Of a stretch of 64,000 nucleotides of DNA, positions 5,701 through 51,845 are shown piece after piece. Source of the stretch: a virus (taxonomy: Duplodnaviria > Caudoviricetes). The stretch lies in IMG/VR virus record IMGVR_UViG_3300042397_003635. One strand, 5' to 3'. The notes under the pieces were generated by a model. It searched no databases. It saw only the letters and a program-made list of their open reading frames with translations, and had not been told where the DNA came from. Position numbers and translations under genes: made by a program. Numbering within the stretch: position 1 is the stretch's first letter; every line of letters starts with the position of its first letter.

Positions 5701-6009
5701 TACTTTGTCTAATGTATCGTCAGTTGGCAATACGTTCAAAGCATAAACTGGGCCTTTTCTTAGCGCTACTTCTAGTGTTCTATGGAAATAACTGCCCTTG
5801 CTTTCAAGTTTAGTGTCTCTTTCACCATAAACTGCTAGCGCACTGTTTAAGTCGCTTAAAGCCACAACTGTATTGATTGGTCCTCTTTTGCTAGATCCGA
5901 TAACTAATCGGCCAGTTCCTAGAGGTAATGCAATGTTTTGGCTCTCATCGATTTCGACTGTGTAGACGCCACTTGATTTAAAGCGATTGAGATTTAATTT
6001 TTGTGCCAT
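2797..6009 (-). CDS. gp18: Tail sheath protein (gp18-like) with large central insertion
   Basis: N-term SSGVYTVEIDES and GSSKRGPIN; C-term PPAAYVA, GFNMIVRRRGFG, NNIHVREALATIEKDI, FLFDFNDEITR. 1070 aa versus about 660 aa for T4 gp18. Confidence 0.92.
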   Translation of the reverse strand: MAQKLNLNRFKSSGVYTVEIDESQNIALPLGTGRLVIGSSKRGPINTVVALSDLNSALAVYGERDTKLESKGSYFHRTLEVALRKGPVYALNVLPTDDTLDKVTFATFNTESGSFNSDFTASAFEQPLSSFFNTQKLWYADEDQFNRTKNNALSSEDDNKIFSIVNLGKRPVTVWAKLADVAGYDVTIKEYYKVTGGDKVTIPTYLHPDDIVADYIIELIAVEGDWTDNARLANDPVYKSYFNERGIIMSKINGFLNLREVKNIARVNGSLIPQFKDASGADISIDRVFNRLFSQTELFCALDENKIELIDLETAFANASMDSHRIDLAGHGYMDLIAADFQDYFIDNGFTGDYTDANAKLDVLGYKAPVKNTAVFEVTTGISDSCRVVTENGNQIIIAREGTQLYKAWYDGFIVTGNGFITTQNGTTASKYVKVESGFTEVVNLVTKNYIKIKCFDNITLTNQSATIPVITVVDTFVKLSLDIHGTNSTTKVFDFAAELAANNNVAEITTTKLSLNKIEMKVLSSTSVTVGNASPVVTASNASYLAEVTEFVKPNYYVKAKANGAGRSRFLKIVSVAGTDIISNSSVPTPAVPAVNESGIAVDAFIAAATDITLSAANANIVIGCAVSGTGIAPNTTVTNKVGLVLTLSTPTTGVSGGTYTFTKALVPGYTTTTVKTYKNFVVTTLVPSDSTIIGIDIDSNIIFHKGIRNYITAAKGVKLGGFTMRDAQLPNGTSARQSDILGWLYENTNIAKTLAEGEIVDFRYIIDTFEGDISGSSKYYLAKIAADNGQCLAILNSPSIRQLELSTEPSFADVTTKLVSAKHIADGGNLDLNPTTTFRFVDEEVNGVPMGSYAAYFMPNLIVNDNGRNKSVPPAAYVANAFMNKYESGRPFSIVAGKHGIIGDSDVVNVEYELSQEDRDYLEPAGFNMIVRRRGFGIMVFTNNTAYQKINSALNNIHVREALATIEKDIERILFNFLFDFNDEITRLRIKTLVEGYLERAKNAQGIATYTVVFDTTNNGPEVLSANTAIIDVFLDFPRGIHKFINRITITKVGGGLSSQATGFIPSF

Positions 6010-21523: not shown

Positions 21524-23041
21524 TTATGCTAATTTAGCAAGAGAACCAGATGCCAATGAGAATTGAACATACTGAGTTCCAGGATGCCATCCAGCTTCAA
21601 CCAATGCATATCTTGACTTCATACCGATTTTCGGAGAGAAAGTACCCTCAGAAATAGTTTGAAGAGATTCTGCCATGATGTAAGGCATGAATTTAAGACC
21701 TGGCTCTTCGTCAGCACCTTTACGACCAATTAATACAGTCGCATCGTCAAACTTCAAGTTAGGATCAACGTATACGTTAAGACCGTAAACTTTACCAGCA
21801 GGGTACAATGTACCAGCAGCAGAACCTAAATCGTTGTTGAAAGGAGCAATTGAGTAACCAGCAGCATCAGCCATAGCAGATGCAACTTTAGCACCAACTA
21901 CTGCGAAAGTACCAGCACCAAAACGTGCTCTGTGGTAGATCAAGTTAGCAGATTCTAACATCTTGCTAGCAAGTCTTCTTTGAGCAGTTGTTACGTTTTC
22001 GAAACCACCAGTATAAGTAGCAGCAGATAAGTCTAATGTAGCAGAATAACCTTCAGCTGTTGCAGCTGCAGCAGCGTGAGTTGTTGCTAAATTCTTAACT
22101 TTAGAAACGATTTCTTTGTTGATTGTTTGAGCAAGCTCGTTAACAGCAACATTCTCTAACATAGAGATTGCGTCGAAATTCCAAACTCTGTTAAGATCTT
22201 GGATTTGCTCAACTGTTGCAGAGATAGAAACTTGAGAAGTTTTAGCCTCAACAAACTTAGTGAACATTTTAAGACCCATTTGACGGAATTTAGAAGTTTC
22301 ACCAGCACCTCTATTCATAGATTGAGTGTACTCTTGACCATCTAAGAAAGGACCATACCAAGCAGAAGCTTCAGCTGTACCTGCAGGAGCTGCAGTTGAA
22401 GTGAAACCAGAGATATGATTTTCTAAAGCAGATACTAATTCTACTTCAGCTTCTGAAACAGCAATACCTGCAGCAACCGCTTGAGCAGCAACTGAAGTAG
22501 AAGCGTCTGTACCAGAAATAACTTTGTAGATGTATTTTGCATCTAGACGAGATACACCAACATAAGCAAACTCTCTGTCACCAGTGTTATCTGGAGTTGT
22601 ATCAAGAGTTGCAGTTTTGATCAAATATGGTTCAAACTCACCAGTTACGTTACCACCTTGGTAAACATAATCTAAGTAAGGAAGGAAACCAACTGGAGAG
22701 TCCATAGGAACTACACCAACTAGGTCAAAACCAATAGTTTTTGCTGCTACTTGAATAGCAACTGGCAATAAACTTGGGAATTTATCACCTGAACCATTTG
22801 CACCAGTTGTTGGAGCTAATGGGTTACCGATTCCACTGATAGAACCTGGTTGTTGATAGAATAAACCTGGAGCAACAGCTGATTCGTTGATTGCACCTGC
22901 GTTTTCGAACATTGCGTGATAGTGGCAATAATCTACTAACCAAGGACGTGAATCTGCGTTTACACCATAGCTTTCTAAAACTGGAGCCCAAGTTGACTTA
23001 ACAGAGGCATCGTTTAGTCTTTTAAATACTTTTGTAGACAT
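21524..23041 (-). CDS. gp23: Major capsid protein (gp23-like)
   Basis: LLPVAIQVAAKTIGFDLVGVVPMDSPVG, ELAQTINKEI, GTFSPKIGMKSRYAL; probable maturation site INE/SA. Confidence 0.95.
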   Translation of the reverse strand: MSTKVFKRLNDASVKSTWAPVLESYGVNADSRPWLVDYCHYHAMFENAGAINESAVAPGLFYQQPGSISGIGNPLAPTTGANGSGDKFPSLLPVAIQVAAKTIGFDLVGVVPMDSPVGFLPYLDYVYQGGNVTGEFEPYLIKTATLDTTPDNTGDREFAYVGVSRLDAKYIYKVISGTDASTSVAAQAVAAGIAVSEAEVELVSALENHISGFTSTAAPAGTAEASAWYGPFLDGQEYTQSMNRGAGETSKFRQMGLKMFTKFVEAKTSQVSISATVEQIQDLNRVWNFDAISMLENVAVNELAQTINKEIVSKVKNLATTHAAAAATAEGYSATLDLSAATYTGGFENVTTAQRRLASKMLESANLIYHRARFGAGTFAVVGAKVASAMADAAGYSIAPFNNDLGSAAGTLYPAGKVYGLNVYVDPNLKFDDATVLIGRKGADEEPGLKFMPYIMAESLQTISEGTFSPKIGMKSRYALVEAGWHPGTQYVQFSLASGSLAKLA

Positions 23042-23058: not shown

Positions 23059-25092
23059 TTAGTTGTTTGCTCTTCTTTTTAGAGCGTCGAGGTATGCATT
23101 ACCATAACCTCTTTGATGTTCCGCAACTTTCTCAATCGAGATAAAACCTTCTCTACCTTGGCTTTCGTTGATGTGTTGCGCTGTTTTATTTTGTTTTTCG
23201 AAATAAATTCTTTCATTAACTCCTCTTAAATCTCTGCTCTCCCAGAAGTTTTTAACTTGGTAAGGAGTGTTAAGAACAGTTAAAGAAGCTTGAGCTTCTA
23301 AACGGCTCTTTTCTGCAGGAGTCATGCTTTCAAAAACTTCTTTGAATTTAGCAGGCATGAACTTAATTAAGTTTGGAGTATTTTCTTGTTGTTTGTTAAG
23401 AACTGATTCAATGATTTGGATAACGTCTTCTTCTTTGAAGTAAACTGCACCTGAAAGAGCTTCAATAATAGCAGTTTTTTGAGTTTGATCTAAATTAAAG
23501 AATCTTGATTTATTATCTTCGTTAAGAAGTTTTAAGAATGGATATCTGCTTTCTAATACAGATTTAGCAGAGTTATCTTTGATATGCTTAACAATTGAGT
23601 TAACTGAACTTACAATATCAGAAACATTAGAACCTTCAGAAACTTGATAGTTTACAGACTCATCTAATTTTTCGATTTGGCTAAATGCAGAGGCAGTTTT
23701 AGTAGAAAGACCTACTTTACCTTCATTTAATTCAGTTGCAATATACTCAGAATATTTAATTCCTCTTTCAAGGTTTTCAGCAAGATAGTTAGCGTAACCA
23801 ATAGAGTGCTTTAAGTTTTCAGCAACGTATTCAGTGTATCTGATACCTTGTTCTGATTTTTCAGCAACATACTCAGAATATTGAATTCCTTTATCAAGGT
23901 TTTCTGCTAAGTATTCTGTGTATTTAATATTTTTGTTTACGTTTTCAGCAATATGCTCAGAGTAATCAATTGCATTATTTAGGTTTTCTCCAACGTATTC
24001 AGCATAACCGATACCTTGTTCAACTTTTTCTGCAAGATAATCAGAATAATCAATTACTTTATTAACTTTCTCAGCAACGTGCTCAGAATAATTAATTGAT
24101 TTGTTCATCATTCCAGAAAGGTAATTGTTATATTCAATTACTTTGCTAAGCTCGCTTGAAAGATAGTTAACATACTCAACTAATTGTTCATTAGTTGCAG
24201 GTGTTTGTTCTTCATCTTGTTCAGCATTTGGATCTTCAACCACTGGAGCATCAGCAGGTTGGTCGTCTTCGGTAACTGCGAAGTTATCAACCATTTTATC
24301 TACACTTTCTTTAAGTGCGTCAAACTTGCCTTTAACAAGTTCAGAGTATTGGTTGAACGCTTCTTTCGTTACAAACTCATTAGTCATGTGTTTGTTATTA
24401 TTTTCCATAGTTTGTACTATCTCTTCATTATTTATCTTATAAACTTTGATTGATTCCTCGAGGTTTAAGCTTTCAGAAATATCAACCAATTTATTTACAA
24501 TTGACGTAGATTTAATATTTTCCAAAGATTCGAAAAGCATAGAGTAATTGCTTTGGAAGCTCTCGTTAACAGATCTTCTAAGAACAGCTTCACTGAAACC
24601 AGGTTCAGCTACTAGATCGTATGTGAATATTCTTTGGATTTTTACTTTACCTTCATTCATTACCTGACCAGCGGCTCTTGAAGAAGTTGAAATTGTACAG
24701 CCTGACTCAACTAGAGTTTTTGCAATCTGGCCAGCGGGAGTGTTAAGCAGACGTACTTTAATTTTTACGTTATTAGAATTTTGATCGTACCATAATTTCT
24801 CAACTACGTGAGAAACGTTTTTAAGTGAAACGTCAAAATTTTGAGGGTGGTCTAGCTCACCAAATAATTGACCTCTTTCGATTTTCTCGTTTAGGTATTC
24901 TAGGTGAGGAAGATACTCTGCTTTTTCGTAGATACGGTTGTTGTTATTCTTTGTGTCAAATACTGCACAAACACCTTCCATAACGATATCACCATTATCT
25001 AGTTTTGCTGAGTTTAAACCTTCATTTACTCTTTCTATAATGAAGAGCATATCTGAGGTTTTTGTAATTTCGTTTACGCCTGTAAGGACCAC
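23059..25092 (-). CDS. gp21: Prohead protease (gp21-like) fused to scaffold/core domain
   Basis: MEGVCAVFDTKNNNNRIY, GELDHP, VSHV, STSSRAAG, YDLVAEPGF protease motifs; C-terminal helical repeats; immediately upstream of the capsid gene. Confidence 0.9.
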   Translation of the reverse strand: MVLTGVNEITKTSDMLFIIERVNEGLNSAKLDNGDIVMEGVCAVFDTKNNNNRIYEKAEYLPHLEYLNEKIERGQLFGELDHPQNFDVSLKNVSHVVEKLWYDQNSNNVKIKVRLLNTPAGQIAKTLVESGCTISTSSRAAGQVMNEGKVKIQRIFTYDLVAEPGFSEAVLRRSVNESFQSNYSMLFESLENIKSTSIVNKLVDISESLNLEESIKVYKINNEEIVQTMENNNKHMTNEFVTKEAFNQYSELVKGKFDALKESVDKMVDNFAVTEDDQPADAPVVEDPNAEQDEEQTPATNEQLVEYVNYLSSELSKVIEYNNYLSGMMNKSINYSEHVAEKVNKVIDYSDYLAEKVEQGIGYAEYVGENLNNAIDYSEHIAENVNKNIKYTEYLAENLDKGIQYSEYVAEKSEQGIRYTEYVAENLKHSIGYANYLAENLERGIKYSEYIATELNEGKVGLSTKTASAFSQIEKLDESVNYQVSEGSNVSDIVSSVNSIVKHIKDNSAKSVLESRYPFLKLLNEDNKSRFFNLDQTQKTAIIEALSGAVYFKEEDVIQIIESVLNKQQENTPNLIKFMPAKFKEVFESMTPAEKSRLEAQASLTVLNTPYQVKNFWESRDLRGVNERIYFEKQNKTAQHINESQGREGFISIEKVAEHQRGYGNAYLDALKRRANN
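23719..24180 (-). repeat. Eleven tandem 14-aa repeats (I-x-Y-x-E-Y-[LVI]-A-E-x-x-x-x-x)
   Basis: VEYVNYLSSELSKV ... IKYTEYLAENLDKG / IQYSEYVAEKSEQG / IRYTEYVAENLKHS ... IKYSEYIATELNEG; 11 x 42 nt = 462 nt. Confidence 0.92.
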
Positions 25093-25111: not shown

Positions 25112-25119
25112 TATTTATA
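25112..25119 (-). promoter_or_regulatory. Late promoter TATAAATA for the protease-capsid operon
   Basis: Exact T4 late consensus about 20 nt upstream of the GTG start. Confidence 0.75.
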
Positions 25120-25162: not shown

Positions 25163-26026
25163 CTATTTAGTCTTATTTATTAGGCTTATTAGATCCAGCT
25201 TCTCAGAATCAGTTAGTTTATCGAAATTAGGAACCTTGGTGTGAATTTTAAAGATATAAGAACCTTTATTTTGTGTGCCAGTTGACATTCCTCTACCAGG
25301 AATAGTTATTCTAATGTCATTAAATGACTTAGCTTTGATTGACTTTATTTTAAAATTGGTTCCAGAAACTGAAGTAAAAATAAAATTTTCAATATTAATT
25401 AGTTCATCGAGACTTACTTCTCGATTATCAATAATATTACCTGATACATCAAGAGAAACTCCAGCGGGTAATACAATATCCAATAAAACATACAAATTGC
25501 CAATAAATGCACGGTTAAACATGCTTCCACCTCCAAGTTTTCCATGATTTCCCATATTTTGAAAGGTTAATCTGGAAAAGGCCTTATTGCCATCGAATAT
25601 TAATTGGTGTTTAGTTGTATCTGGGTTAAGATCAACACTAAATCTAATTGGAGAAGATTCTCCCTTTTTTGTGTAAGTAACCTCAATAGTTTTTCCAATT
25701 AACAAATCTTTAAGATCGATTTTTTGGTTAACAACAATGTCTAGATTAAGACCCCAGTTTTGAGTAAAAATATCTTCAGCAGCAAAGCCGCCAAACATGT
25801 CTCTAAGATCTTCAAAGGTTGATCCAGCTGATCCACCTCGATCGTAGTTTTTACGTTTTTCCGAATCTCCTAATACACCATAAGCCTCAGCGATTTCCTT
25901 AAATTTGGATTCGCCGTCTGGATTTTTATCAGGGTGATATTTTACAACAAGCTTTCGGTAAGCCTTTTTAATATCTTCCTGACTGCATCCACGCTCTACT
26001 TCTAGTATATTATAATAGTCTTTCAC
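25163..26026 (-). CDS. dnaJ: DnaJ-family co-chaperone (J domain, no zinc finger)
   Basis: [10 protein letters not shown]...KYHPDKNP...[11 protein letters not shown]; G/F-rich region; C-terminal domain with GRG and GSYIFKI. Confidence 0.9.
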
Positions 26027-26045
26027 TATAATTAATATACCTAAA

Positions 26046-26846
26046 TTAGTAGCCTACTGTAACGGTTTTTGATAAAATGTTAGGTTCCAGTGCAGCAAGT
26101 ACACCGGCATTTAGTCCTGGTGTTGCTGGAAGTTTTCCATCCACTGCGCTGGCTAGACTTTTTAGGGCAGTCATTACCGCATTACCCATAACTGCAGGTT
26201 CAGTTGATGAGCTGTGACCAAGTCGAGTAAAATCACCATTTAGCCATACTTGGCTTGATGTGACTCTAACTTCTGATGTTGCATTAATATCAACAGTTGA
26301 ATTTGCTATAATATTAATAGTTGGACCCTCTAATTCAATAATAGATTGGGTTTCTTTATGTTCAATTGTTATCTTGGAATCTTGTGCAATATTAATTCTA
26401 GATGACTTATTTTCAAAAGTAAGGCCCTTTCCAACGGTAAACCATAATTTAAGCGCTTCGTCTCCATCCCATAAAATAAAATGGGATCCTAAATATTCGC
26501 CGTCCTTTTTAAGTTCTTCTTGAAGGTCTTTTGCAAGTTCTTGTAATTGTTCGTATTCTGGGCTATAGATATCTCCTTGGTCAAATCTCACTACAACGAG
26601 TGCACCATTTTTTGGTATTGAAATACTAGCCGCGCCCTCTTTTCCAAAGAATGTAGATTTTGTTCCTGGATTAGCCCATGGAATATCTTCAATCGCAAGG
26701 GAATCGAATAGTCCATGTACCCTAACTCGACAGCGTCCTTCTTTCAATGGATCATTTACGTCAACAACAGTTCCCATATATCTCTTAATAAGATACTCAA
26801 TTGAACTATCATCAGATCTATTAATATCGGTGTTACGGTTTAACAT
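26046..26846 (-). CDS. gp5: Baseplate central spike / gp5-VgrG-like OB-fold protein (no lysozyme domain)
   Basis: [39 protein letters not shown]; C-terminal beta-strand repeats. Confidence 0.8.
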
Positions 26847-28558
26847 TATGACTTATATGGGTTTTGGCTAGTTATTTTACCTCCTTGTTTTCTTTGGTTT
26901 ACAATTGATGAAACTGTAGAATCGCCTGGAAAAACATCAAACCTAATAGATCCAGTAGATTTAGTTGTATTATTTACAAAAACATCGGTCTTAATTGGCG
27001 ATGCATATTGAGAAGACTTTCCAGGAAAAATATCATTCTTAATTGGCGGAGCCTTTCTATTATCAGCGCCAGTAAATTCATCTCTTGTAATTTTTGGAGC
27101 CTTACGGTTATCTGTTCCAGTAAACATGTCCACGTTTATTGGTAAGGCTGTCCTAATATCGGTTCCTTCAAAAACATCGCTATTCAGTGGAGTTACTCGA
27201 CGTCCATTAACCACGTCTTCAACTGATATGCTTGGCCCATATGGATTTATTTTAAGACCATTTTCTCCTAGGAAATTATTAACACCACTTTCAAAATTCT
27301 GCTGTACTCCTTGTAGAGCATCATTTAACAATCTCTGTGGAGTACCTAAAACATTAGCAAGCTTATTTTTTGCTGCGGTTAATACTCTAGTAACTCCTCC
27401 AGTAAATGGCCCAAGGTTAAGTGCTCCATTAAGGGCGCTAGTAATAGACGTAGTTACAAATGAATTTGGTTCTCCTAGTGATGCAAAACCAAATGACTGA
27501 TCACCAAAATGGGTCGCAGGTAAAACTCGTTTAATTTTAATCTTAAATTGTGGTTGAAAACTTGAATCGCTTACGCTAGATTTTACTCCAGATGAATAGC
27601 TGTCAAGAAATCCAGAAAAATCAAAGGTGCAACCTACACATCTAAATCCAATTCCACCGAAATTAATTTGTGCACTAAATGTGTCATCATAAAAAGCATT
27701 TGGTCCAAATCCTAATCCAATATTAATTCCGCTAGTATCTACTCCACTTTTTAGAAATCTTAAATCCATTAAGTATAAATCCATTGAAAATTGTTCAAGG
27801 TTATGCGGTAAAATCTTTCTATTATTAAATGAATCCCAAGAAAGCATTTTATAGTAGTGAGCAAGTTTAGTTATTCTTAAGTCAACACTTTCTTCACACT
27901 TTATTGTAATTACCGACTCTGCTACGCTATGCTTATATGACGCATCCCATAAAGAGTTAAGACCATCTATTTCTTTAAATGTCCATGGAGATTGTGTTAA
28001 AATTAGATTTAGTAAATTTTTAAATTCTGCTAAATAATAACCTCTATTAATATCAGTGACATCTGGTTTAATTCCATCAATTGTTGAGTTTGCTCGGTTC
28101 TTTAGTGGAACGCTGTTTGACCATTTTTCTTCATAATCATCATCTAGCGTTTCATTTCCAAAGTGGTTTAGATATTGAATTGCACTAGCTTCGCTTGGAT
28201 CACTTGCTAATTTTGTAAAGTTTTTTCCATCGTTTCTAATGGCCATCGATCCGGTTTCAACGTTAAGTGAACCTTCTTCTGGGAAATAGAAAAGAGGGTT
28301 TGCTCGCAATCCAGTAAAAGGATTTTCAATATCTTTTGCTTCGGAATTAGTTGAATGTATATCAATATAGAAACCAAAGTAAGTTGGATCTTCATTTCCA
28401 ACACTTTCTGTTCTACCGTTTCTAAATGCATAAATTATATTAGGTAGCTCATTGGTTCTTTTGTCAAATATTGAGGAGATTGCTGCCCCATACTTATTAC
28501 TATTAGAGCTATTTCCGCTTAGCGCATTCTGGATTCCTGATAAAGCATCACTTGGCAT
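26846..28558 (-). CDS. Putative baseplate/tail-tube-associated protein with C-terminal repeats
   Basis: 570-aa ORF within the baseplate cluster; no firm family match. Confidence 0.65.
   Translation of the reverse strand: MPSDALSGIQNALSGNSSNSNKYGAAISSIFDKRTNELPNIIYAFRNGRTESVGNEDPTYFGFYIDIHSTNSEAKDIENPFTGLRANPLFYFPEEGSLNVETGSMAIRNDGKNFTKLASDPSEASAIQYLNHFGNETLDDDYEEKWSNSVPLKNRANSTIDGIKPDVTDINRGYYLAEFKNLLNLILTQSPWTFKEIDGLNSLWDASYKHSVAESVITIKCEESVDLRITKLAHYYKMLSWDSFNNRKILPHNLEQFSMDLYLMDLRFLKSGVDTSGINIGLGFGPNAFYDDTFSAQINFGGIGFRCVGCTFDFSGFLDSYSSGVKSSVSDSSFQPQFKIKIKRVLPATHFGDQSFGFASLGEPNSFVTTSITSALNGALNLGPFTGGVTRVLTAAKNKLANVLGTPQRLLNDALQGVQQNFESGVNNFLGENGLKINPYGPSISVEDVVNGRRVTPLNSDVFEGTDIRTALPINVDMFTGTDNRKAPKITRDEFTGADNRKAPPIKNDIFPGKSSQYASPIKTDVFVNNTTKSTGSIRFDVFPGDSTVSSIVNQRKQGGKITSQNPYKS
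26900..27187 (-). repeat. Six tandem 16-aa repeats ([IL]-x-x-D-x-F-x-G...)
   Basis: LNSDVFEGTDIRTALP / INVDMFTGTDNRKAPK / ITRDEFTGADNRKAPP / IKNDIFPGKSSQYASP / IKTDVFVNNTTKSTGS / IRFDVFPGDSTVSSIV. Confidence 0.85.
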
Positions 28559-28560
28559 AA

Positions 28561-30117
28561 TTATGCATTAATATTTTTTAATCTTTCAGTTTCTAAATAA
28601 GAATCTGGTTTTACGTCTAGCCACTCTCTTTTTGCTAATACTAAAGTAGTTGACATTTTTGTATTGTCTAATTCCGAAAGTGCATCGTATTCATATATTA
28701 CGTCCTTTACATAATACAACCCTGACAAATAATAGTCATACGACTCTTGTGTAGTTGCTTCTGCTCCAGGGACCTCTTTAATATTATCATCAGTCTGCAT
28801 ATTTCTAGGATCGTCTGCACTCTTTAAATTTTTTATAACTACTCTAACCTTAACTCCACGAATAACATTTTGGTTCATACTAGGAATTTTTACAACCAAG
28901 TAATTTTTAGTTAATTCTGTTAAGTTGTGTAAATTTAGTAATTTAGCAAATTTATAGTTAGTATGACCATTGTTATAATCTATTCCCAGCCATCTTGCAG
29001 ATTGTTCGCCTTCTGTAAAGTTGTTGAGCATAGGCTTTTGGTATAAAACTTGATTATTAACAACCTCTCTTTTACTTAATGGCTCGTGGTAAAAAGACAA
29101 ATACTTACCAGTATTTAAGTATTCAGCTCGATCATGCCAGTTAATTTGTTTTTTATAGGCTTGAGTGGATAAAACTTCTCCGTGATTTGAATACATTGAA
29201 TATTCAACTATATTTAGAGCCGAACCTGATCTTTTTCTAGAACTATTTAGCTCAACATCAAAAAATTCATATTTTTTTTCCTTATTATCAGTTGTTGTTG
29301 TTGCGTCTAGGTTTGATAAGTTTGTTTGAGATGTTACATCTCCCGCAACAGCGTATTGGAATACTTTAGTTTCTGCACCCAATACCTTTTCAACATTAAT
29401 AAAATTTAAAATATAGTTTACATCAATAAATGAAGTAAAAAAACTAGTTTCATTTTTATATGCACGATCAGTTATATTTTTAATAAAATTTGCAACAGTT
29501 GAATTTGGATTTATCCAAGTCATTTCATCATTAGTTGACTCTTCGTTGGTTGCAAATCCAAGTTTTAAATCAGTTGCAATCTTTTTAAGAGCATCAATTG
29601 ACTTAAGTTTAGGTAAAGCTTTTATATTATCTCCATATAAACCTGGAATAAACAATGACCCAGTTATAGTGTAAATATTTTCTTGATTACTTCCAGTATA
29701 AGTATTATTCGTTGGACTTCCAACAATAGATTCAACTAAATAATCTCCCCTAATCATTTTTGTTTCAGGGTTATTTGATTTAACATATAACTTTAACAGT
29801 GGATTTCTTCTAGGAAAGTATCTTCCGCTAAATGCACCACTTTTATCAATAAAACTTAGAGTAATTTCAGGCAAAAATCCATTTTGGTATATGTTTAATG
29901 AGATAAAATCTCTCATCATTATACGATAATTATCAATTTCTGCATATGGAACAAGTGCACCAGCAACGTTTGCCACGTCTTGGCCAGCTTTTGATGAATC
30001 ATTAGACTGTCCACCCGATTGATTATTAAATCCCTTTATATCAGGTATTGCAATTGTATTAATCACCAGGGTAGGCTGAAATACGGTCGATAATGCGTTT
30101 GGATCAGTTGTTGCCAT
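28561..30117 (-). CDS. Putative baseplate hub protein (gp27-like)
   Basis: C-terminal IRGVKVRV...YLSGLYYVKDVIYEY...TTLVLAKRE pattern typical of hub proteins; between the gp53-like and gp5-like genes. Confidence 0.65.
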   Translation of the reverse strand: MATTDPNALSTVFQPTLVINTIAIPDIKGFNNQSGGQSNDSSKAGQDVANVAGALVPYAEIDNYRIMMRDFISLNIYQNGFLPEITLSFIDKSGAFSGRYFPRRNPLLKLYVKSNNPETKMIRGDYLVESIVGSPTNNTYTGSNQENIYTITGSLFIPGLYGDNIKALPKLKSIDALKKIATDLKLGFATNEESTNDEMTWINPNSTVANFIKNITDRAYKNETSFFTSFIDVNYILNFINVEKVLGAETKVFQYAVAGDVTSQTNLSNLDATTTTDNKEKKYEFFDVELNSSRKRSGSALNIVEYSMYSNHGEVLSTQAYKKQINWHDRAEYLNTGKYLSFYHEPLSKREVVNNQVLYQKPMLNNFTEGEQSARWLGIDYNNGHTNYKFAKLLNLHNLTELTKNYLVVKIPSMNQNVIRGVKVRVVIKNLKSADDPRNMQTDDNIKEVPGAEATTQESYDYYLSGLYYVKDVIYEYDALSELDNTKMSTTLVLAKREWLDVKPDSYLETERLKNINA

Positions 30118-30686
30118 TATTGATTAAAGATTTTAGCTTCAATTAAAGTTTTTAATACCTTTGACCTTGAGATTGGAGTTGGGCAGTCTGCTTTATTAAC
30201 ATTAGTAACATCTGCTCCGAATATAATATTTCCATCTTTTATTCTTATATTCTGATCTTTAGGTAAGGTTACATTTGGTGCAACTTTAGATGATGCTTTT
30301 TGCGTTAAATAATTAAGTCTAGATTTATCTGCAGTTGAAGCTGGAACAATATTTGGAATTGCTTTGATTGAGCCTTTGTCAATGATACTAAGCGCATTTT
30401 TAAAAAAATTTGCAGGATTTTTTGGTACAATCAATATTTGCCCTGCATAAATTGAAAATGGATTAGATATGCCATTATATTTACATAAAACATCCAAATA
30501 GTTTGGATTATTATAATAATAATCTGAAATAATATCAGGTCTCATTTGTTCCTCTTCTGAAACAACGTGTTTCCATGAACTTAGGGTATCTACTGTAAAA
30601 AATGAAAATATATTTGCGCCCAATATTCTTTCTGTGAAACTACCAGTTTTAAGAGGTTTACCAATAAGAAGTCTTAAATTAATCAT
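30117..30686 (-). CDS. gp53: Baseplate wedge protein, LysM / gp53-like
   Basis: EQMRPDIISDYYYNNPNYLDVLCKYNGISNPFSIYAGQILIVP. Confidence 0.8.
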   Translation of the reverse strand: MINLRLLIGKPLKTGSFTERILGANIFSFFTVDTLSSWKHVVSEEEQMRPDIISDYYYNNPNYLDVLCKYNGISNPFSIYAGQILIVPKNPANFFKNALSIIDKGSIKAIPNIVPASTADKSRLNYLTQKASSKVAPNVTLPKDQNIRIKDGNIIFGADVTNVNKADCPTPISRSKVLKTLIEAKIFNQ

Positions 30687-30703
30687 ATAACAATTTTAAT
30701 ATT

Positions 30704-32599
30704 TTATGAACCTTGTGTTGTTGTAATTTGAGTTCCGTTATCTTGCGACCCAGTTGGCAGGTCCTTTGCTGCACTAGGAATGTAGAAATATACATCATTA
30801 ACTAGTGACTGGGTATCTGGTGTCCACATAGCTTCGCCCCATCTATTTTTAATCCAGGACTCTGCTCTAACCATATTTACATTGGTATTTGTTCCAGCCC
30901 CTTCCGTTGACCCGGCTGCTCTTCCTGTTTGATCGGTTGCTTGCGTGCCATATGTATTTAGTTGATCTTGGGTTGCACCAACTCGACTATCAACATAATC
31001 CGTTCTACCAAGATCAAATGCTCTTCTAATATCTGCGCTATCTCTAGGTTTAGTTCTTTTAAGTGTAACTACAAATTTCATTTCAGTTGGAAAATCATTT
31101 GGTCCAAGTTCATCTCCAAACGTACATGATCCACCGGTTACAACAATATCTCCCATTTGCATAATAGGATTCATTGGATTTCCTATTGTTATATGCCAGT
31201 TTCCGGTTGGCTGATTACCAACGGCTGATCTTCTTTGAACAAATGCTGGAAATGTTTCTCCAAGCGCTCTAGTAACAGCAATATTCATCGCTGTTTTGAG
31301 TGCTCCCGTATCTTTAACATTTTTAATATCGTTAAGACCTATTAGAGATCCTAATAAGTTTCCTCCAGCATCAATTGCTTCTCCACCTGCTTGTAGAGTA
31401 AAATCCAGTGCCGCATTAACTCTTGCCTTTGTAATTTGTGCAAGTGCATTAAATAATGCGTCTGGGTTAAATGCAGAGCCTTGCATAGAATTAGAAATTA
31501 GGGCCTGTTCAGTTTTAGTTAAAGCTAATCCAACTTTTTTATAATAAACATTTAATACTTCTAACCAATCTCCATCTGAATATGTTAATTCGAGCATATT
31601 CGCTAAAATATCTAGGGCAACTCTTCGCTGATCTAATCCAAAGTATGAATCTGTTCTAAATTCAAATGTTAATGACATTTCATCATCAAAATCTGGGGTC
31701 AATCCTCGACTTCTCATTAAAAATTGATTTTTAACGTTAACTGGTCCAAGTATTTGATTAAAGTATGCACCATTATCTGAATATAAGCCTTTGATAAAAT
31801 CCTGTCTCTTTTGTTCAATCGATGATTTACCGGTTGACGTGGCAACCCTTTCAAAGTTATCCTTTAATTGTTTTTGATATCCACTTTGACTTGGATTTAG
31901 ATCCATATCTGATGCAGTTAGCGCAATGTCTAATACCGAATTAAATAGAGGGTTAACTTTATCTGCACCCGCATCAGTAAATACCTTTTTTAGAGATTGT
32001 CCGAAGTTAACAATTTCATTACCTTCAACATCCTTTTGATCAATTGATTTTTTGGTCCAAGGCATCGACCATTTATTTTGCCAAAATGAATTAATATCAT
32101 TACCTGTACCCTCGCCAAACCAAGTTACAGCTTGTGCAATTGGAATAAATCTTGCAGTGTTATTATTCTTTCTTCCAGGAATTGCAGTATCATTAATTGC
32201 AACTGGATATTTTCTAAGAGTAATCATTCGATTATTTGATACAACTCCATATAATTTACAAAAAATAAAGTCACTCCATGAATATGGGGCTGACCATAAC
32301 GTAAATTCACTAGCTAGAGTAGGTAGGTTTTTACCCCAATCGATAATTGAAGCAGCTGTTGGATTTGAATATTGCTTTCTAGTTGCGGCATTTACCAGAC
32401 TTCTGGCTTTAACATAAGTATCTTCTTTGATTTCTGCAACACCGCCAGTATATTTAAAAACATACCATGGGCTAAATAGAGAATAGTCCCTGCCTCCAGC
32501 AACAATGGACCCAGTAATGGGGTCTACCTGTAAAAATTCCTTTTTGGCAGAATCTTCGGCTGAAAGATCAGCTACACTTGGTAAAGCATCAGTTGGCAT
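30704..32599 (-). CDS. Putative baseplate/tail structural protein (631 aa)
   Basis: Heads the baseplate operon; ATAGATA promoter variant at 32619-32625; no firm family match. Confidence 0.65.
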   Translation of the reverse strand: MPTDALPSVADLSAEDSAKKEFLQVDPITGSIVAGGRDYSLFSPWYVFKYTGGVAEIKEDTYVKARSLVNAATRKQYSNPTAASIIDWGKNLPTLASEFTLWSAPYSWSDFIFCKLYGVVSNNRMITLRKYPVAINDTAIPGRKNNNTARFIPIAQAVTWFGEGTGNDINSFWQNKWSMPWTKKSIDQKDVEGNEIVNFGQSLKKVFTDAGADKVNPLFNSVLDIALTASDMDLNPSQSGYQKQLKDNFERVATSTGKSSIEQKRQDFIKGLYSDNGAYFNQILGPVNVKNQFLMRSRGLTPDFDDEMSLTFEFRTDSYFGLDQRRVALDILANMLELTYSDGDWLEVLNVYYKKVGLALTKTEQALISNSMQGSAFNPDALFNALAQITKARVNAALDFTLQAGGEAIDAGGNLLGSLIGLNDIKNVKDTGALKTAMNIAVTRALGETFPAFVQRRSAVGNQPTGNWHITIGNPMNPIMQMGDIVVTGGSCTFGDELGPNDFPTEMKFVVTLKRTKPRDSADIRRAFDLGRTDYVDSRVGATQDQLNTYGTQATDQTGRAAGSTEGAGTNTNVNMVRAESWIKNRWGEAMWTPDTQSLVNDVYFYIPSAAKDLPTGSQDNGTQITTTQGS

Positions 32600-32663: not shown

Positions 32664-33383
32664 TTATCCGTGGAATGGATCGAGATCTGGATTAGGAATC
32701 ATTTTCCAGCGTCTTTCTAGATTTGCACCTTGACCCCGTGCAAGTTGAATTTCTTGTGAATTGTGTTTAATTACCTCTAGTGCATTAATATAATCTCCAG
32801 CATCAACTAAATCTTGCACCATTTCGGCATCATCATCAGATAATAAGACTCTATAAACTACTGGATGACGCTGCTCATTAAAACGACAACGCATTATCAT
32901 CATGCTTAGTTGGCCATTGTATTCTTTCATTACACTTTTTCTAGTTGGAGCAGTTTCATCTGCTAAACCTAAATCGTGAATTCTGTCTAATTGATCTAAA
33001 TAGGTATGATCAATATTTTCTTTATTAAAAGACTCAATTCCATGACAATCTGCAATTCCAAAATACCAACTAGCAGATTCGGTTGATTCATTAATGAAAG
33101 AAGAAAATCGTAATACTTTATTTTCTGCAAGTGGTTCATTTGCATCAATAAGGTCTAAATCTGCATCACGAAGATCATAAATTTCGTCAAATGTTGTTTC
33201 TTCGAATTTAATTGGCTCTTCTAGATCAACCATGTATAAAGTTTGATCTGGAGCATAGTCTAATTTATAAACTTTTCCAATAGTTACAATTTTATTATCA
33301 ATTGGTGCGCCAACAAGATTAAGACGATCCATTGTGTCTTTGGATAATCTAAGTTTAACTCTATCTCCGATTTCGAATGCCAT
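32664..33383 (-). CDS. Hypothetical protein, putative head-internal protein
   Basis: Internal LAENKVLRFSSFINES, nearly identical to the motif in ORF 54688-55914. Confidence 0.75.
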   Translation of the reverse strand: MAFEIGDRVKLRLSKDTMDRLNLVGAPIDNKIVTIGKVYKLDYAPDQTLYMVDLEEPIKFEETTFDEIYDLRDADLDLIDANEPLAENKVLRFSSFINESTESASWYFGIADCHGIESFNKENIDHTYLDQLDRIHDLGLADETAPTRKSVMKEYNGQLSMMIMRCRFNEQRHPVVYRVLLSDDDAEMVQDLVDAGDYINALEVIKHNSQEIQLARGQGANLERRWKMIPNPDLDPFHG

Positions 33384-34931: not shown

Positions 34932-35285
34932 TTAGTTTTCTTCTCTAAAGTCAGTAAGAAGTTCAGTCTCTTTTGAGTCTTCTACTTCATTCATTAAAAA
35001 GTTAAGAACCTCTTCAACGTCATCCTTTGATGTTGCAATATGGTCAGCCGCCCATGCATGTCCATTAGATAAGATTGAGTCAACTTTAGCCTCATCCATT
35101 TCCAATAAAATGTCAACTAGACGCTTAATTGTTTTAAGATTTCCGAAAAACATATAGTTTTCATATTCTGCTCCATGGGAATCTTCCTCACTATGAGAAA
35201 TTTCTGGTTCGTTGTTAAATGGTTGAATTTGATTTGGTTCAAAATCATCATTAGCAAATGCTTCGAATGTTTTAATAGTTTTCAT
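34932..35285 (-). CDS. Acidic hypothetical protein with N-terminal CTS-like motif
   Basis: Starts MKTIKTFEAF. Confidence 0.78.
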   Translation of the reverse strand: MKTIKTFEAFANDDFEPNQIQPFNNEPEISHSEEDSHGAEYENYMFFGNLKTIKRLVDILLEMDEAKVDSILSNGHAWAADHIATSKDDVEEVLNFLMNEVEDSKETELLTDFREEN

Positions 35286-36908
35286 TTAGTTTTTTCCTAA
35301 ATTTTTATAAAAGCTCATAAAGTCCATAATATTCTTATTAGACTTTTTAGTTTTTCTTGGTTGGAAATTATCTCCAGAACCAACGTTAGTTTGAGTAGGT
35401 GCAACTGGATTACCTGATCCGCTTATTGAGGCAGGCGTTTGAAATGCTACACCAGGGGCAGTTGCGTCTTCTTTAACTGTACCAGATCCAACTTTAGTTG
35501 CTCCTTTGATTTTACTTTGTGGTGCATCTAGTCCACTTTCTGAACTAGTAAAAAGAAATCTAGTCCACTTTTCTGCTTTAAGTTGAGCTTCCTTTCCTCC
35601 TAATTGCTTAGCCGTTCTGGAAATAGTTCTACCTACAACCGGTTTAGTTGCTCTTCTAGCTCTAGCAAAAACTTCTCCTAATACCTTTTGTTCGTATCCA
35701 TCAACTTCATCACTAAATTTAAGAAAACCGGAACCAATAAGATCGCCAATCTTTAGTAGATAATTAATTCTACTTGAATCTAGCATCTGTTTAGATGTAA
35801 TAGGAATTATTTGCTTTTCATATAGAGGAAGTGTAATCTCTGGAGAATATGAAACTCCTTTATATCGCTTTAGATCTAGGTCAGTTTTATACTTACCTAA
35901 TCTTGCTCTAGCTTCCATATATGCTTCAACGGCAAGTGCCATATAGGTAGATTTAGCTTCTCTAGAAAGAGCCGTTTGATCATCAGTACCTCTCCTAGGA
36001 TCAGTCATAATCTCGGTTCTAACTTTAACAAACTTTGATTCAAGCGTATTTATGTCTGGCCAAGTTCTAAGTTCTTCAATCGCCAATCTAATAAGAACAT
36101 CACGTTTAGTAAACTTTTCAGCTCTACCTCCAGTTTTCTTGTTAAGTTCATCTGAAAGTTCTTTAATCTTTCTCTTAAGCTCTTCTATCTTTTCTTGACT
36201 TTCATCGTATTTAATAGCTTGATCTTCTTCAAACTCTGGACTAACTATTTCAATGAAATCAATATCTTCAATATCTGGCTCAACTCGGTTTTTCTTTTTA
36301 GAAAAACCATCTAATATTTCTGCGATTTGAACGGCTTGTCTAACATCGTCCTTAATTGCTTCATCATCAGTTGAATCTTTTCCAAAATTAGATTCAACGT
36401 ATTTCATTAAAGTTTCAGCTTGAGTTGCCTTTTCTTCACCAAGATCAGATGCTGCAATTTTTAGTTTAGATAAAAGATCATTTACCTCCTTTGTCCATTT
36501 AGACTCTTCTATTGCGTGATATGCATCCCAGATAGTTTTTAATCTTTGCTCATATACATTGATTCTTGCTTGCTGAGTAGTTGTATCTTGACCGTTTTTA
36601 ATTAGATCTTCCAATTCAGAAATTTCTAATTTTAAGACTTGTGAAACATAATCAATGTACTTATCTAAAATTTTGATCCATTGGGTTTGCAAGAATACTT
36701 GACTAAGTTGTTCTAAGATAACCGGATCAGTTTTAGATTTATTAATAATATCCTTTTCTATCAACATAGATAGAAATGCATCTAATTTTGCAAGCATATC
36801 TGCATCATTTTCGATGCTAATTATATCATTGGCTTCATTTCCAATAATAATAAGGTCAGCCTCCAATAGAAGATGTTCTAGAATATTTATGTGTTTAAAT
36901 TTAAGCAT
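35286..36908 (-). CDS. Coiled-coil protein (540 aa) ending in a copy of the capsid N-arm and a CTS-like motif
   Basis: C-terminal VKE-DATAPGVAFQTPASISGSGNPVAPTQTNVGSGDNF then NIMDFMSFY. Confidence 0.82.
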   Translation of the reverse strand: MLKFKHINILEHLLLEADLIIIGNEANDIISIENDADMLAKLDAFLSMLIEKDIINKSKTDPVILEQLSQVFLQTQWIKILDKYIDYVSQVLKLEISELEDLIKNGQDTTTQQARINVYEQRLKTIWDAYHAIEESKWTKEVNDLLSKLKIAASDLGEEKATQAETLMKYVESNFGKDSTDDEAIKDDVRQAVQIAEILDGFSKKKNRVEPDIEDIDFIEIVSPEFEEDQAIKYDESQEKIEELKRKIKELSDELNKKTGGRAEKFTKRDVLIRLAIEELRTWPDINTLESKFVKVRTEIMTDPRRGTDDQTALSREAKSTYMALAVEAYMEARARLGKYKTDLDLKRYKGVSYSPEITLPLYEKQIIPITSKQMLDSSRINYLLKIGDLIGSGFLKFSDEVDGYEQKVLGEVFARARRATKPVVGRTISRTAKQLGGKEAQLKAEKWTRFLFTSSESGLDAPQSKIKGATKVGSGTVKEDATAPGVAFQTPASISGSGNPVAPTQTNVGSGDNFQPRKTKKSNKNIMDFMSFYKNLGKN

Positions 36909-37327
36909 TAGTCTAGGGTTAATCTGTAAGCTAATTTATTTTTAAGAGATAAAAACTCATCTCTTAAGTTATACAATTCAGTATTTGATTCTTGTTCGAA
37001 TATTTCACAAAAATCTTGGCAAAATACCTTTTCGATATTTTGAATAAAGATTGGCATAGCTGACTCATAGTCCATTACAAGAATAGCGCTACCTCCAACT
37101 TTAAATCTGCCGTATTTTCCAATAACTTGCTCAGCAATTTCGTCAACTAAACCTAGGAAATCATCATAAAATGCACCAAACGCATTATGTTGAGCTTCGT
37201 TAGTTGTTTGCCAATGTAAAATATGAGCTTGGTCTCTAATTTGTAGTAGACTTAACATGAACGTAGATACATCCATGCCCTCGATTTGAGGTTCATCTAG
37301 TCCGCTTTGTAATTCAAATGGAATCAT
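36908..37327 (-). CDS. Ferritin/Dps-like four-helix protein (DUF5856-like)
   Basis: QAHILHWQTTNEAQHNAFGAFYDDFLGLVDEIAEQVIG; ATG at 37327 overlaps the upstream TGA (ATGA). Confidence 0.75.
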   Translation of the reverse strand: MIPFELQSGLDEPQIEGMDVSTFMLSLLQIRDQAHILHWQTTNEAQHNAFGAFYDDFLGLVDEIAEQVIGKYGRFKVGGSAILVMDYESAMPIFIQNIEKVFCQDFCEIFEQESNTELYNLRDEFLSLKNKLAYRLTLD

Positions 37328-37503
37328 TTCTTTGTAGTTTGTTTTTTCCAATCGGCGAACGGTTTAATCCAAAATGTTCTATTTGTTTCCTTCTTTAATA
37401 GATCCATAATTGGATTTTCTCCACTTGGATGTTGTATAACCGCATTTTCCAATCTGGTCTTACCTTGGAGATAATCTTTATAGTTTTTCTGAGAAGAATT
37501 CAC
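37324..37503 (-). CDS. 59-aa ORF missing from the ORF track
   Basis: GTG start 20 nt after ATAAATA; VNSSQKNYKDYLQG...FWIKPFADWKKQTTKK; ATGA coupling to the ferritin-like gene. Confidence 0.7.
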   Translation of the reverse strand: MNSSQKNYKDYLQGKTRLENAVIQHPSGENPIMDLLKKETNRTFWIKPFADWKKQTTKK

Positions 37504-50135: not shown

Positions 50136-51845
50136 ATGGCAGGATTTCTAGACAATATCGGCTTAGGAGGACTTAAATCAAGACTATCAGATTTAAGCCG
50201 AGTTGGTATGAAGTACGAGGATCTTTTAATTAAGAACTCACAATCGATAGGATTTATTGAAAGTCAGCTAATGCAAGCTAGAGGAAGCGCTCTACCCGGT
50301 GGACAAACTGATTCTTTAGCTAGAGCTACAATGGCAATATCAGATACAACATCTGCTCTTAGAACTAAAGCTATTGCATTCTTTCAATTAGATTACGCAA
50401 CAAAAAGAGAAAGACTAAGAGATCTTGCATCAAATGGTGAAATTGAATTTGTAATCGAGTCAATTACCGATGACGTTATTGTATTTGATGAAGATAACCG
50501 TTTTGCATATCCAAATGACCTAGTTGGAGAAATGCTCTATAAAGGAAAAAATAAAGAGCAGCGTCTTAAGTATCAAGAAAAAGTTATTGAAAAATATAAC
50601 GAAAATTTTGAAAGAATCTACAATGCATGGGGTTTCAATGAAGGAATTTCAGCATGGCAGTATTTTTATCAGTGGTTAATTGAAGGACATTTGGCATTTG
50701 AGATTCTTTATGATGATTTACAAAACCCAAGAGAAATTATTGGATTTAAAGAAGTCGATCCATCTACGCTATATCCTCAAATTAAAAAGGACGCAGCTGG
50801 AAAGATCTTTTTAGAATGGGCCCAAAAAGTTGCTGGAGAATCTAAAGTAAGAACCCTTACCGATTCCCAAGTTCTTTACTTATCATATTCAAACCATTTT
50901 AGAACTAAACGTATTTCTTTTGTTGAGCGAATGGTTAGATCATTTAATTTAATGCGTGTTATTGAGCACTCTAAAGTTATTTGGCATACAATGAATGCTC
51001 CTATTCGTTTAACTACTAAAGTTCCAATTGGAAGTAAGTCTCTAAACAAAGCAAAAGAAGATGTTCGTGAATTTGCAAACCAATTAAAGGAAGATATTTT
51101 CTTTGATACTAATACTGGAGAAATCCAAGTAGACGGCCGCCCTAACTTATTATTCTATAAGAATTATATTTTACCGGTAAACGATCAAAACCAAGCAATT
51201 GAAATTGCTCCATTGGAATACGCAGGTCCTAATATGTCAGGATCAGAGCTTCTTAACTATTTCAAAGAAAAGTTAAAGATGGACTCTAAGATTCCTTATT
51301 CAAGATGGGATTCTGCAAATGGCGCAGGTCAATATACAATGAATGCTGAAGGTATTCGTCGTGAAGAAATTCGTTATAATAAATTTGTAACTCGTCTTCG
51401 TTCAGCGTTTAAAGAATTATTGACAAAGCCTCTATATCTTCAAATGTGTCTTGATTTTAAAGATCTAAAAGATGATTATAGATTTAAGAATGCTGTAGGT
51501 ATTAACTGGCATGACGATAACGTATTTGAAGAAATCAAACAACAAGATTTACTTAATAAGCGTCTTGCTACACTTAATGCCCTTAAAGGAGTTGTTGATG
51601 ATGAAGGTAAGCCATACTTCTCTACTGAATACTTGGTTAAAGAGTATTTAAGAATGAGCGATGAGGATCTTCAAAAGAATAAAGATTATATGAATCAAAC
51701 TCCAACTGGAGAGGGTGAAGCTGGAGAAGCTGCAGCAGCCGGAGCAGCACCAGAAGCAGGTTCTGCCCCAGAAGGAGGCGCGGGTGGTGAAGCCGCTGCT
51801 GGTAAAGAAACAGCTAGCGAATTAGGAGCCCCAGGATCTTTATAA
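50136..51845 (+). CDS. gp20: Portal protein (gp20-like)
   Basis: EIEFVIESITDDVIV, WLIEGHL, LNYFKEKLKMDSKIPYSR, IRREEIRYNKFVTRLRSAF, STEYLVKEYLRMSDE. Confidence 0.92.
   Translation: MAGFLDNIGLGGLKSRLSDLSRVGMKYEDLLIKNSQSIGFIESQLMQARGSALPGGQTDSLARATMAISDTTSALRTKAIAFFQLDYATKRERLRDLASNGEIEFVIESITDDVIVFDEDNRFAYPNDLVGEMLYKGKNKEQRLKYQEKVIEKYNENFERIYNAWGFNEGISAWQYFYQWLIEGHLAFEILYDDLQNPREIIGFKEVDPSTLYPQIKKDAAGKIFLEWAQKVAGESKVRTLTDSQVLYLSYSNHFRTKRISFVERMVRSFNLMRVIEHSKVIWHTMNAPIRLTTKVPIGSKSLNKAKEDVREFANQLKEDIFFDTNTGEIQVDGRPNLLFYKNYILPVNDQNQAIEIAPLEYAGPNMSGSELLNYFKEKLKMDSKIPYSRWDSANGAGQYTMNAEGIRREEIRYNKFVTRLRSAFKELLTKPLYLQMCLDFKDLKDDYRFKNAVGINWHDDNVFEEIKQQDLLNKRLATLNALKGVVDDEGKPYFSTEYLVKEYLRMSDEDLQKNKDYMNQTPTGEGEAGEAAAAGAAPEAGSAPEGGAGGEAAAGKETASELGAPGSL

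Follow-up and report, generated by a model that had tools for sequence, protein, structure and literature searches.

Encapsulin cargo-loading peptides are disordered C-terminal peptides that follow a flexible linker and load cargo into an HK97-fold shell. In phage T4, cleavage of core proteins gives rise to small peptides that stay inside the head. The T4 prohead protease gp21 recognizes an L/I-x-E motif, and the capsid-targeting sequence (CTS) of IPI-III and Alt, a short peptide beside such a site, takes unrelated proteins into the prohead core and is then cut off (PMC9026906). The CpmB protein of SaPI1 and the scaffold of 80alpha, otherwise unrelated, share a short homologous C-terminal peptide that uses one binding site on an HK97-fold capsid protein (PMC5644958). 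None of these three, the T4 CTS, the CpmB/80alpha peptide and the encapsulin peptides, copies the capsid protein's own N-terminal segment. Here, we analyze a stretch of viral DNA of 64,000 nucleotides (referred to as the window; IMG/VR record IMGVR_UViG_3300042397_003635, Duplodnaviria, Caudoviricetes) that encodes a 540-aa protein, P0001 (hereafter P540), with a conserved C-terminal cassette. The cassette has as its core, judged by sequence, a paralogue of the N-terminal ~36 residues of this phage's major capsid protein in its presumed mature form.

Residues 480-515 of P540 and residues 53-88 of the major capsid protein, P0002, align without gaps and share 22 of 36 residues by hand count. This likeness had been noticed in an earlier reading of the window, made from the sequence alone and without database searches (the sequence-only reading), and it was borne out by a recount and by two kinds of comparison. 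BLASTP of P540 against the capsid protein returned 41 ungapped columns with 23 identical and 28 positive positions (E = 1e-11, composition-adjusted), and no other significant similarity was found between the rest of P540 and the rest of the capsid protein. When the profiles of the two families, built from 19 and 14 sequences, were compared, the same 41 columns were recovered (probability 95.9%, E = 5.9e-9). The match is real and lies beyond chance. In every record searched, the motif occurs twice and no more, once in the capsid protein and once in the homologue of P540. The sequence-only reading knew of no described equivalent, and our literature searches likewise turned up no description of a capsid N-terminal segment copied onto another protein.

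P0002 belongs to the T4 Gp23 family (hhalign probability of 98.6% against T4 gp23), and the proteins closest to it in GenBank, 33-37% identical, are those that form the capsids of metagenomic huge phages and of Lak megaphages. Because of these relatives, and because IMG/VR contains related records of up to 270 kb with a rating of complete, we assign the window to an uncultured T4-like jumbo phage. Residues 51-53 of the capsid protein read I-N-E, and [IL]-x-E is kept at this place in all relatives. E53, read from the sequence as the last Glu ahead of the fold, is a candidate maturation site that fits the T4 L/I-x-E motif, with putative removal of a propeptide. In the alignment with T4 gp23, the stretch GSGDKF-PSLLP falls at the start of the T4 N-arm region (G92-P93-A94...), so that capsid residues 54-88 correspond by position to the T4 N-fist and not to the N-arm proper. 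AlphaFold2 (AF2) predicted the capsid segment as coil, with a predicted local distance difference test score (pLDDT) of 26-31 and a first helix at residues 92-102; the monomer model is of low confidence (mean pLDDT 52) and is informative solely for residues 50-91, as coil.

The N-fist of T4 gp23 comprises residues 66-91, upstream of the N-arm proper (PMC7136217). Before expansion it is a disordered segment on the inside of the prohead, probably in contact with the scaffolding core; T4 length mutants map to it, and after shell expansion it takes up a position on the outer surface (PMC9546572). In this position it has contacts with four subunits, and five N-fists at the portal vertex lack partners and remain disordered (PMC9958956, PMC7136217). 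The jumbo-phage segment resembles it in being the first 25-35 residues after the putative maturation cleavage, upstream of the N-arm, a segment that in T4 makes inter-capsomer contacts after expansion (PMC9958956, PMC9546572). However, the two have no sequence similarity, no second T4 protein is known to carry a copy, and gp24 is without one. The sequence-only reading had proposed that the P540 segment is a mimic of the capsid N-arm that would occupy the N-arm grooves from inside, for instance at the portal vertex, or anchor a coiled-coil cargo to the shell. A mimic of the capsid N-terminal segment mounted on a helical body is supported, but its position is that of the N-fist, and since the T4 equivalent ends on the outer surface after expansion, binding in a groove from inside is not the obvious expectation.

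The body of P540 (residues 1-452) is acidic (isoelectric point, pI, of 5.3) and all-helical by AF2 prediction. In the model, helices extend to residue 452, residues 452-528 have a pLDDT <50 and are predicted to be disordered, and a short helix covers residues 530-536. P540 had no match in Pfam or among PHROG families, a Foldseek search of the model against the PDB returned just generic helical-repeat and designed proteins (template modelling score, TM, <0.2), an ESM Atlas look-up gave no usable match, and tblastn searches of GenBank phages with P540 and with its cassette found no relative. Close homologues of P540 number 27 (48-99% identity). An exhaustive profile search extended the family to 106 cluster representatives, 65 of them at E<1e-10 and all unannotated; a Pfam search of its longer or fused members gave nothing informative. 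P540 was rejected as a capsid or vertex (gp24-like) paralogue, as only 41 residues align with the capsid protein and the predicted fold is all-helical, and as a homologue of T4 gp22, for which hhalign of the P540 family gave a probability of 0.3%. A similarity of gp67 or gp22 to gp23 in T4 did not turn up in the reviews searched and is given no weight here. Immediately upstream of the P540 gene lies the gene for a DUF5856/Dps-like protein (phrog_858, starvation-inducible regulator), whose stop overlaps the P540 start.

The C-terminal cassette starts with a [VI]-x-E site followed by [DE], continues with the capsid-like core (APG-x3-Q-x-P-x-S ... G ... PT ... GSGD-x-F) and a Lys-rich stretch, and ends in an [ILV]-x-x-F-x-x-F-[ILMY]-K tail; the C-terminal tag IMDFMSFY named by the sequence-only reading is present in this tail. 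In an alignment of 19 family members with identities down to 20%, V-K-E at 478-480 is the sole [ILVM]-x-E motif conserved in all 19, and the C-terminal 63 residues account for 10 of the 18 invariant columns (V478, E480, P485, G486, Q490, P492, G510, G512, F530, and F533). The two candidate protease sites that had been proposed, INE in the capsid protein and VKE in P540, both directly precede the shared segment, and a cut after E480 would yield a predicted product of 60 residues, 6.3 kDa, and pI 9.9. In comparison with the far clade of the family, the capsid-like segment of P540 is 58-66% identical and its body 20-25%; the former value is about equal to the 61% identity between this segment and that of the capsid protein in the same phage. 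No other part of the P540 family is as conserved as the cassette.

Two variants depart from this pattern. In type B, a large sub-family (L057, L062, L066, L071, L113, P0047, and others), MD..SLAGP takes the place of PT...GSGD.F as the second half of the segment. In P0083, a diverged representative, the site, MD..SLAGP, the Lys-rich stretch, and the tail are all retained, but the capsid-like PG...Q.P core is degenerate.

We compared the two coding segments within genomes to see how their likeness is maintained. Their DNA identity was 62-70% (n = 5), and at identical residues the third codon position agreed in just 40-63% in the five genomes. Recent gene conversion was rejected as the cause of the likeness, since synonymous sites are randomised, and this level of third-position agreement indicates that the likeness is kept at the protein level by selection. 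Distant loci with both genes were recovered via a baseplate-like gene midway between the two, used as a probe with 10-kb flanks. Within genomes, the P540 and capsid segments were identical in 20.9 of 34 columns, compared with 19.3 between genomes (11 genome pairs; p = 0.00025 in a permutation test on these pairs that ignored phylogeny). Particular residues changed in both proteins alike: L049, L050, and L051 are alone in having a +2 insertion between the site Glu and APG, and have it in both proteins; a Pro after Q-x-P-x-x-[LM] occurs in both only in G014 and G015, and both proteins carry N-P in the near clade and [APS]-I in the far clade. Loss of the segment in homologues and its co-variation with each phage's own capsid segment were the tests that the sequence-only reading had set for itself. 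Some form of the cassette is kept in every homologue examined; co-variation is real but partial and amounts to few events. Because every homologue keeps a form of the cassette and some changes run parallel in the capsid protein, a functionally constrained mimic is supported.

The cassette is modular and portable between protein bodies. In P0092 and P0094, the body cannot be aligned with P0001 and the cassette alone aligns, at 98% probability. The P0092 gene occupies the same place upstream of baseplate genes, and the N-terminus of its product, F-E-F-I-A-E-A, resembles the T4 CTS (Y-Q-E-F-I-A-E); this locus is a single Logan contig that stops short of the capsid gene, and no such phages were present in IMG/VR for capsid-cassette pairs of the P0092 type. 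The cassette is internal in P0130, P0118, and P0034, the last of which has the same site context, A-I-N-E, as the capsid protein. P0043, a metagenomic protein of 793 aa, joins in one frame a P540-like protein and, behind it, a homologue of the 239-aa protein encoded near P540 in the window (BLASTP of P0043 residues 553-793, 35% identity, E = 1e-42), and its tail tag aligns with the internal F-S-S-F-I-N-E tag of that neighbour. This fusion is a Rosetta-stone link between the P540 and 239-aa genes, and as such lends independent support to a functional link between them.

Tags of the CTS type are found around the P540 gene. Small proteins encoded nearby carry T4-CTS-like tags followed by [ILV]-x-E; in the 239-aa protein, the internal F-S-S-F-I-N-E, followed by S, resembles the targeting sequence of T4 internal proteins (Y-Q-E-F-I-A-E). 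The P540 tail resembles the F-x-x-F-I-x-E tags of these neighbours and the repeats in the prohead protease, a 677-aa protein encoded directly upstream of the capsid gene. Its protease domain covers residues ~20-240, and its C-terminal part holds about eleven 14-residue Y-x-E-Y-[ILV]-A-E repeats, each with a candidate [ILV]-x-E site. This repeat part is probably the scaffold, because no separate gp22-like gene lies between the protease and capsid genes. The 677-aa protein is the presumed protease and one candidate binding partner of the cassette (Table 1).

Table 1 Positions in the window of the P540 gene, its cassette, the capsid and protease genes, and other features.
Feature	Position	Strand	Evidence or remarks
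Sheath	2797-6009	minus	
Major capsid protein P0002, 505 aa, T4 Gp23 family	21524..23041	minus	PF07068 E=2.5e-47 (residues 89-484), phrog_138
Capsid residues 53-88	22778..22885	minus	E53, candidate protease site (I-N-E); next 35 residues comparable by position with T4 N-fist
Prohead protease (S77/S80), 677 aa, with scaffold-like C-terminal part	23059..25092	minus	PF03420, PF20034, phrog_207
TATAAATA, T4 late-promoter motif	25112-25119	minus	~20 nt upstream of protease start codon
DnaJ-domain protein	25163-26026	minus	PF00226 E=4e-26, weak DnaJ_C match
Baseplate-like module	26046-32599	minus	between P540 cluster and head genes
gp5-type OB hub	26046-26846	minus	in baseplate-like module
239-aa neighbour	32664..33383	minus	homologue fused behind P540-like part in P0043
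117-aa protein	34932-35285	minus	sequence; N-terminus M-K-T-I-K-T-F-E-A-F, CTS-like
P0001 (P540) gene, 540-aa protein	35286..36908	minus	open reading frame and translation
P540 residues 516-540, Lys-rich stretch and hydrophobic tail (I-x-x-F-x-x-F-Y-K)	35289..35363	minus	K521, I527, F530, F533 (nearly) invariant
P540 residues 480-515, capsid-like segment	35364..35471	minus	E-x3-APG-x3-Q-x-P-x-S...G....PT....GSGD-x-F
V478-K479-E480, candidate prohead-protease site ([ILV]-x-E, cut after E)	35469..35477	minus	V478 and E480 invariant
DUF5856/Dps-like protein	36908-37351	minus	phrog_858
Portal	50136-51845	plus	

P540 shares traits with each of the described systems and differs from all of them. It resembles scaffolding proteins such as P22 gp8 and T4 gp22 in its elongated, acidic, all-helical body with a putatively capsid-interacting part at the C-terminus, and, like this class, it may be present in the prohead; it differs in having no detectable homology to gp22 and a C-terminus that is predicted to be disordered and not helix-turn-helix, and the jumbo phage already has scaffold-like repeats fused to its protease. 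The P540 cassette is C-terminal and predicted to be disordered, as are encapsulin peptides, but the latter have another motif, involve no protease step, and are unrelated in sequence to the shell protein, and shell binding by P540 is a proposal. CTS-pattern tags occur in the neighbours of P540 and in P0092. However, the T4 CTS is an N-terminal propeptide of ~10 residues that ends in L/I-x-E and is unrelated to gp23, whereas P540 begins MLKFKHI... with no adjacent conserved site and its cassette is C-terminal, ~60 residues long, located downstream of its site, and built around a capsid paralogue. As in the CpmB/80alpha pair, proteins that are otherwise unrelated share a short peptide, but there the copied peptide derives from the scaffold (helix-and-hook, RIIK) and binds the capsid N-arm, whereas that of P540 derives from the capsid protein and is predicted to be disordered.

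The explanation that we favour, tentatively and at slightly less than an even chance, is that the cassette is a device for incorporation into the prohead and anchoring there, which mimics the capsid protein and is released by the prohead protease. P540 would be a head-internal protein, in the prohead core or as cargo, of a T4-like jumbo phage, and its last ~65 residues would form a portable cassette made up of a V-K-E-D site cut between E and D, the N-fist-equivalent paralogue, the Lys-rich stretch, and an amphipathic F-x-x-F tail. Because its sequence is that of the capsid N-terminal segment, this segment would bind, during prohead assembly, the partner of the capsid N-terminus, be it the protease-scaffold core or an adjacent capsid subunit, and P540 would thereby be built in. 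A cut by the protease after E480 might then free the acidic 53-kDa helical body from the basic 6.3-kDa peptide. What the sequences show is the homology, its strong conservation, the modularity of the cassette, and the parallel changes; the cleavage, the head or virion location, and the binding partner are inferred. In favour of this explanation are the local nature of the homology, the constraint on the cassette, the upkeep of the likeness at the protein level, the parallel changes, the portability of the cassette, and the single candidate site conserved in all 19 members, with the capsid-like context A-I-N-E in P0034. The CTS-like tags nearby and the protease scaffold repeats of the same pattern may be counted in its favour too, as may, by analogy, the behaviour of the equivalent segment of T4 gp23, which is disordered in the prohead and probably in contact with the scaffold core (PMC9546572).

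Several observations weigh against it. Perhaps no more than 3 or 4 events make up the parallel changes, and the permutation test ignored phylogeny. An insertion of 10-16 residues in the far-clade capsid N-terminal segment (...PT-SSMTPF...-GSGDKF) is not mirrored in the cassette: the loci with the capsid insertion before GSGDKF (L043, L048, L050, L054, L116, and L135) have cassettes without it. The capsid proteins of type-B phages (G014 and G015) keep the GSGDKF form, so that the mimicry in type-B members is confined to PG...Q.P in the first half of the segment. The P540 gene adjoins baseplate genes and not head genes. A complex prediction with two copies of capsid residues 89-505 and P540 residues 476-540 reached a score of 0.02 against a mark of 0.32 and counts neither for nor against.

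The conservation of the segment could also be read differently. It might be left over from an old recombination and act today as no more than a flexible Gly/Pro/Ser linker, with the site, the Lys-rich stretch, and the F-x-x-F tail as the functional parts and the capsid likeness without function. Predicted disorder of the segment in both P540 and the capsid protein would fit, as would the tail and site being more universal in the family than the capsid-like core, which in P0083 has almost lost PG...Q.P. But a linker would not hold 58-66% identity, with P485, G486, Q490, P492, G510, and G512 invariant, next to a body at 20-25%, and its changes would not track those of the capsid segment; we regard this reading as quite unlikely. 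The segment might alternatively act on the protease itself, as an exosite after the scissile bond that makes both proteins good or correctly timed substrates with no binding to lattice or scaffold. It begins exactly at a conserved [ILV]-x-E in both proteins, the lineage with the +2 insertion between Glu and APG has it in both substrates, and the upstream context of P0034 matches the capsid site. However, proteases of the T4 type require just a short motif (PMC9026906), and the segment, present in two copies per genome only, is absent from the numerous further candidate sites of the scaffold repeats and tagged neighbours. The spacing is also not fixed, with 15-20 residues between V-K-E-D and PG in type-B members and 2-4 in the capsid protein of the same phage. 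Docking to the protease is quite unlikely as the sole role.

A further possibility, an adjusted form of the proposal made in the sequence-only reading, starts from the peptide and not from the protein that carries it. Once freed, the basic 6.3-kDa peptide might serve as a spare N-fist in trans that fills lattice sites without a capsid N-terminal segment, near the portal or the pentons, and stabilises them or tethers DNA through its Lys-rich part. Its N-terminus would equal that of the mature capsid protein, same-residue parallel changes fit a shared or homotypic lattice site, and T4 offers a precedent in its small internal peptides from core proteins. A search of the proteins of G012, a complete 270-kb IMG/VR relative, found one capsid homologue only and no gp24-like vertex paralogue; the G012 capsid protein may build pentons as well as hexons, or a vertex protein may have diverged beyond detection. 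The four-subunit contacts of the T4 N-fist and its partnerless copies at the portal vertex point the same way (PMC9958956, PMC7136217). But the T4 N-fist ends outside the expanded shell, so a peptide freed inside would have to exit via capsomer pores, and type-B cassettes are without the second half of the mimic; on balance, we hold such a role to be unlikely. That a free-standing N-fist copy at the portal or pentons completes the capsid lattice in trans, with its Lys-rich part and F-x-x-F tail tying the shell to DNA or core remnants, appears distinctly improbable; if true, it would be categorically new, a capsid spare part that has a gene of its own and evolves in step with the capsid protein.

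Little is understood of how jumbo and huge phages assemble their heads, and the short T4 CTS provides the only known answer to how internal proteins, of which there are dozens, are selected for packaging. If the cassette is indeed a capsid-mimicking device for prohead incorporation, it would be an address label of a second kind, one that stems from the capsid protein itself, can move between protein bodies, and is recognisable by sequence. It would then offer a route to annotate head-internal proteins of metagenomic jumbo phages, a candidate tag for bringing foreign cargo into large capsids, and a handle on the prohead partner of the T4-type capsid N-terminal segment, which bears on capsid size control in T4.

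The structural genes of the window are scattered, as the portal and sheath genes lie far from the head genes and from the baseplate-like module. Apart from the gp5-type hub, this module encodes a 189-aa protein, which weakly matches tail-sheath and baseplate-wedge families in PHROG, and proteins of 570, 518, and 631 aa that matched no family. The T4 late-promoter motif TATAAATA stands upstream of the protease gene; as a general feature of the region it was rejected, being under-represented, with 3 matches in the window against 9.8 expected. Between the genes for the baseplate hub and the protease lies that of a DnaJ-domain protein, which could be a phage co-chaperone in head assembly.

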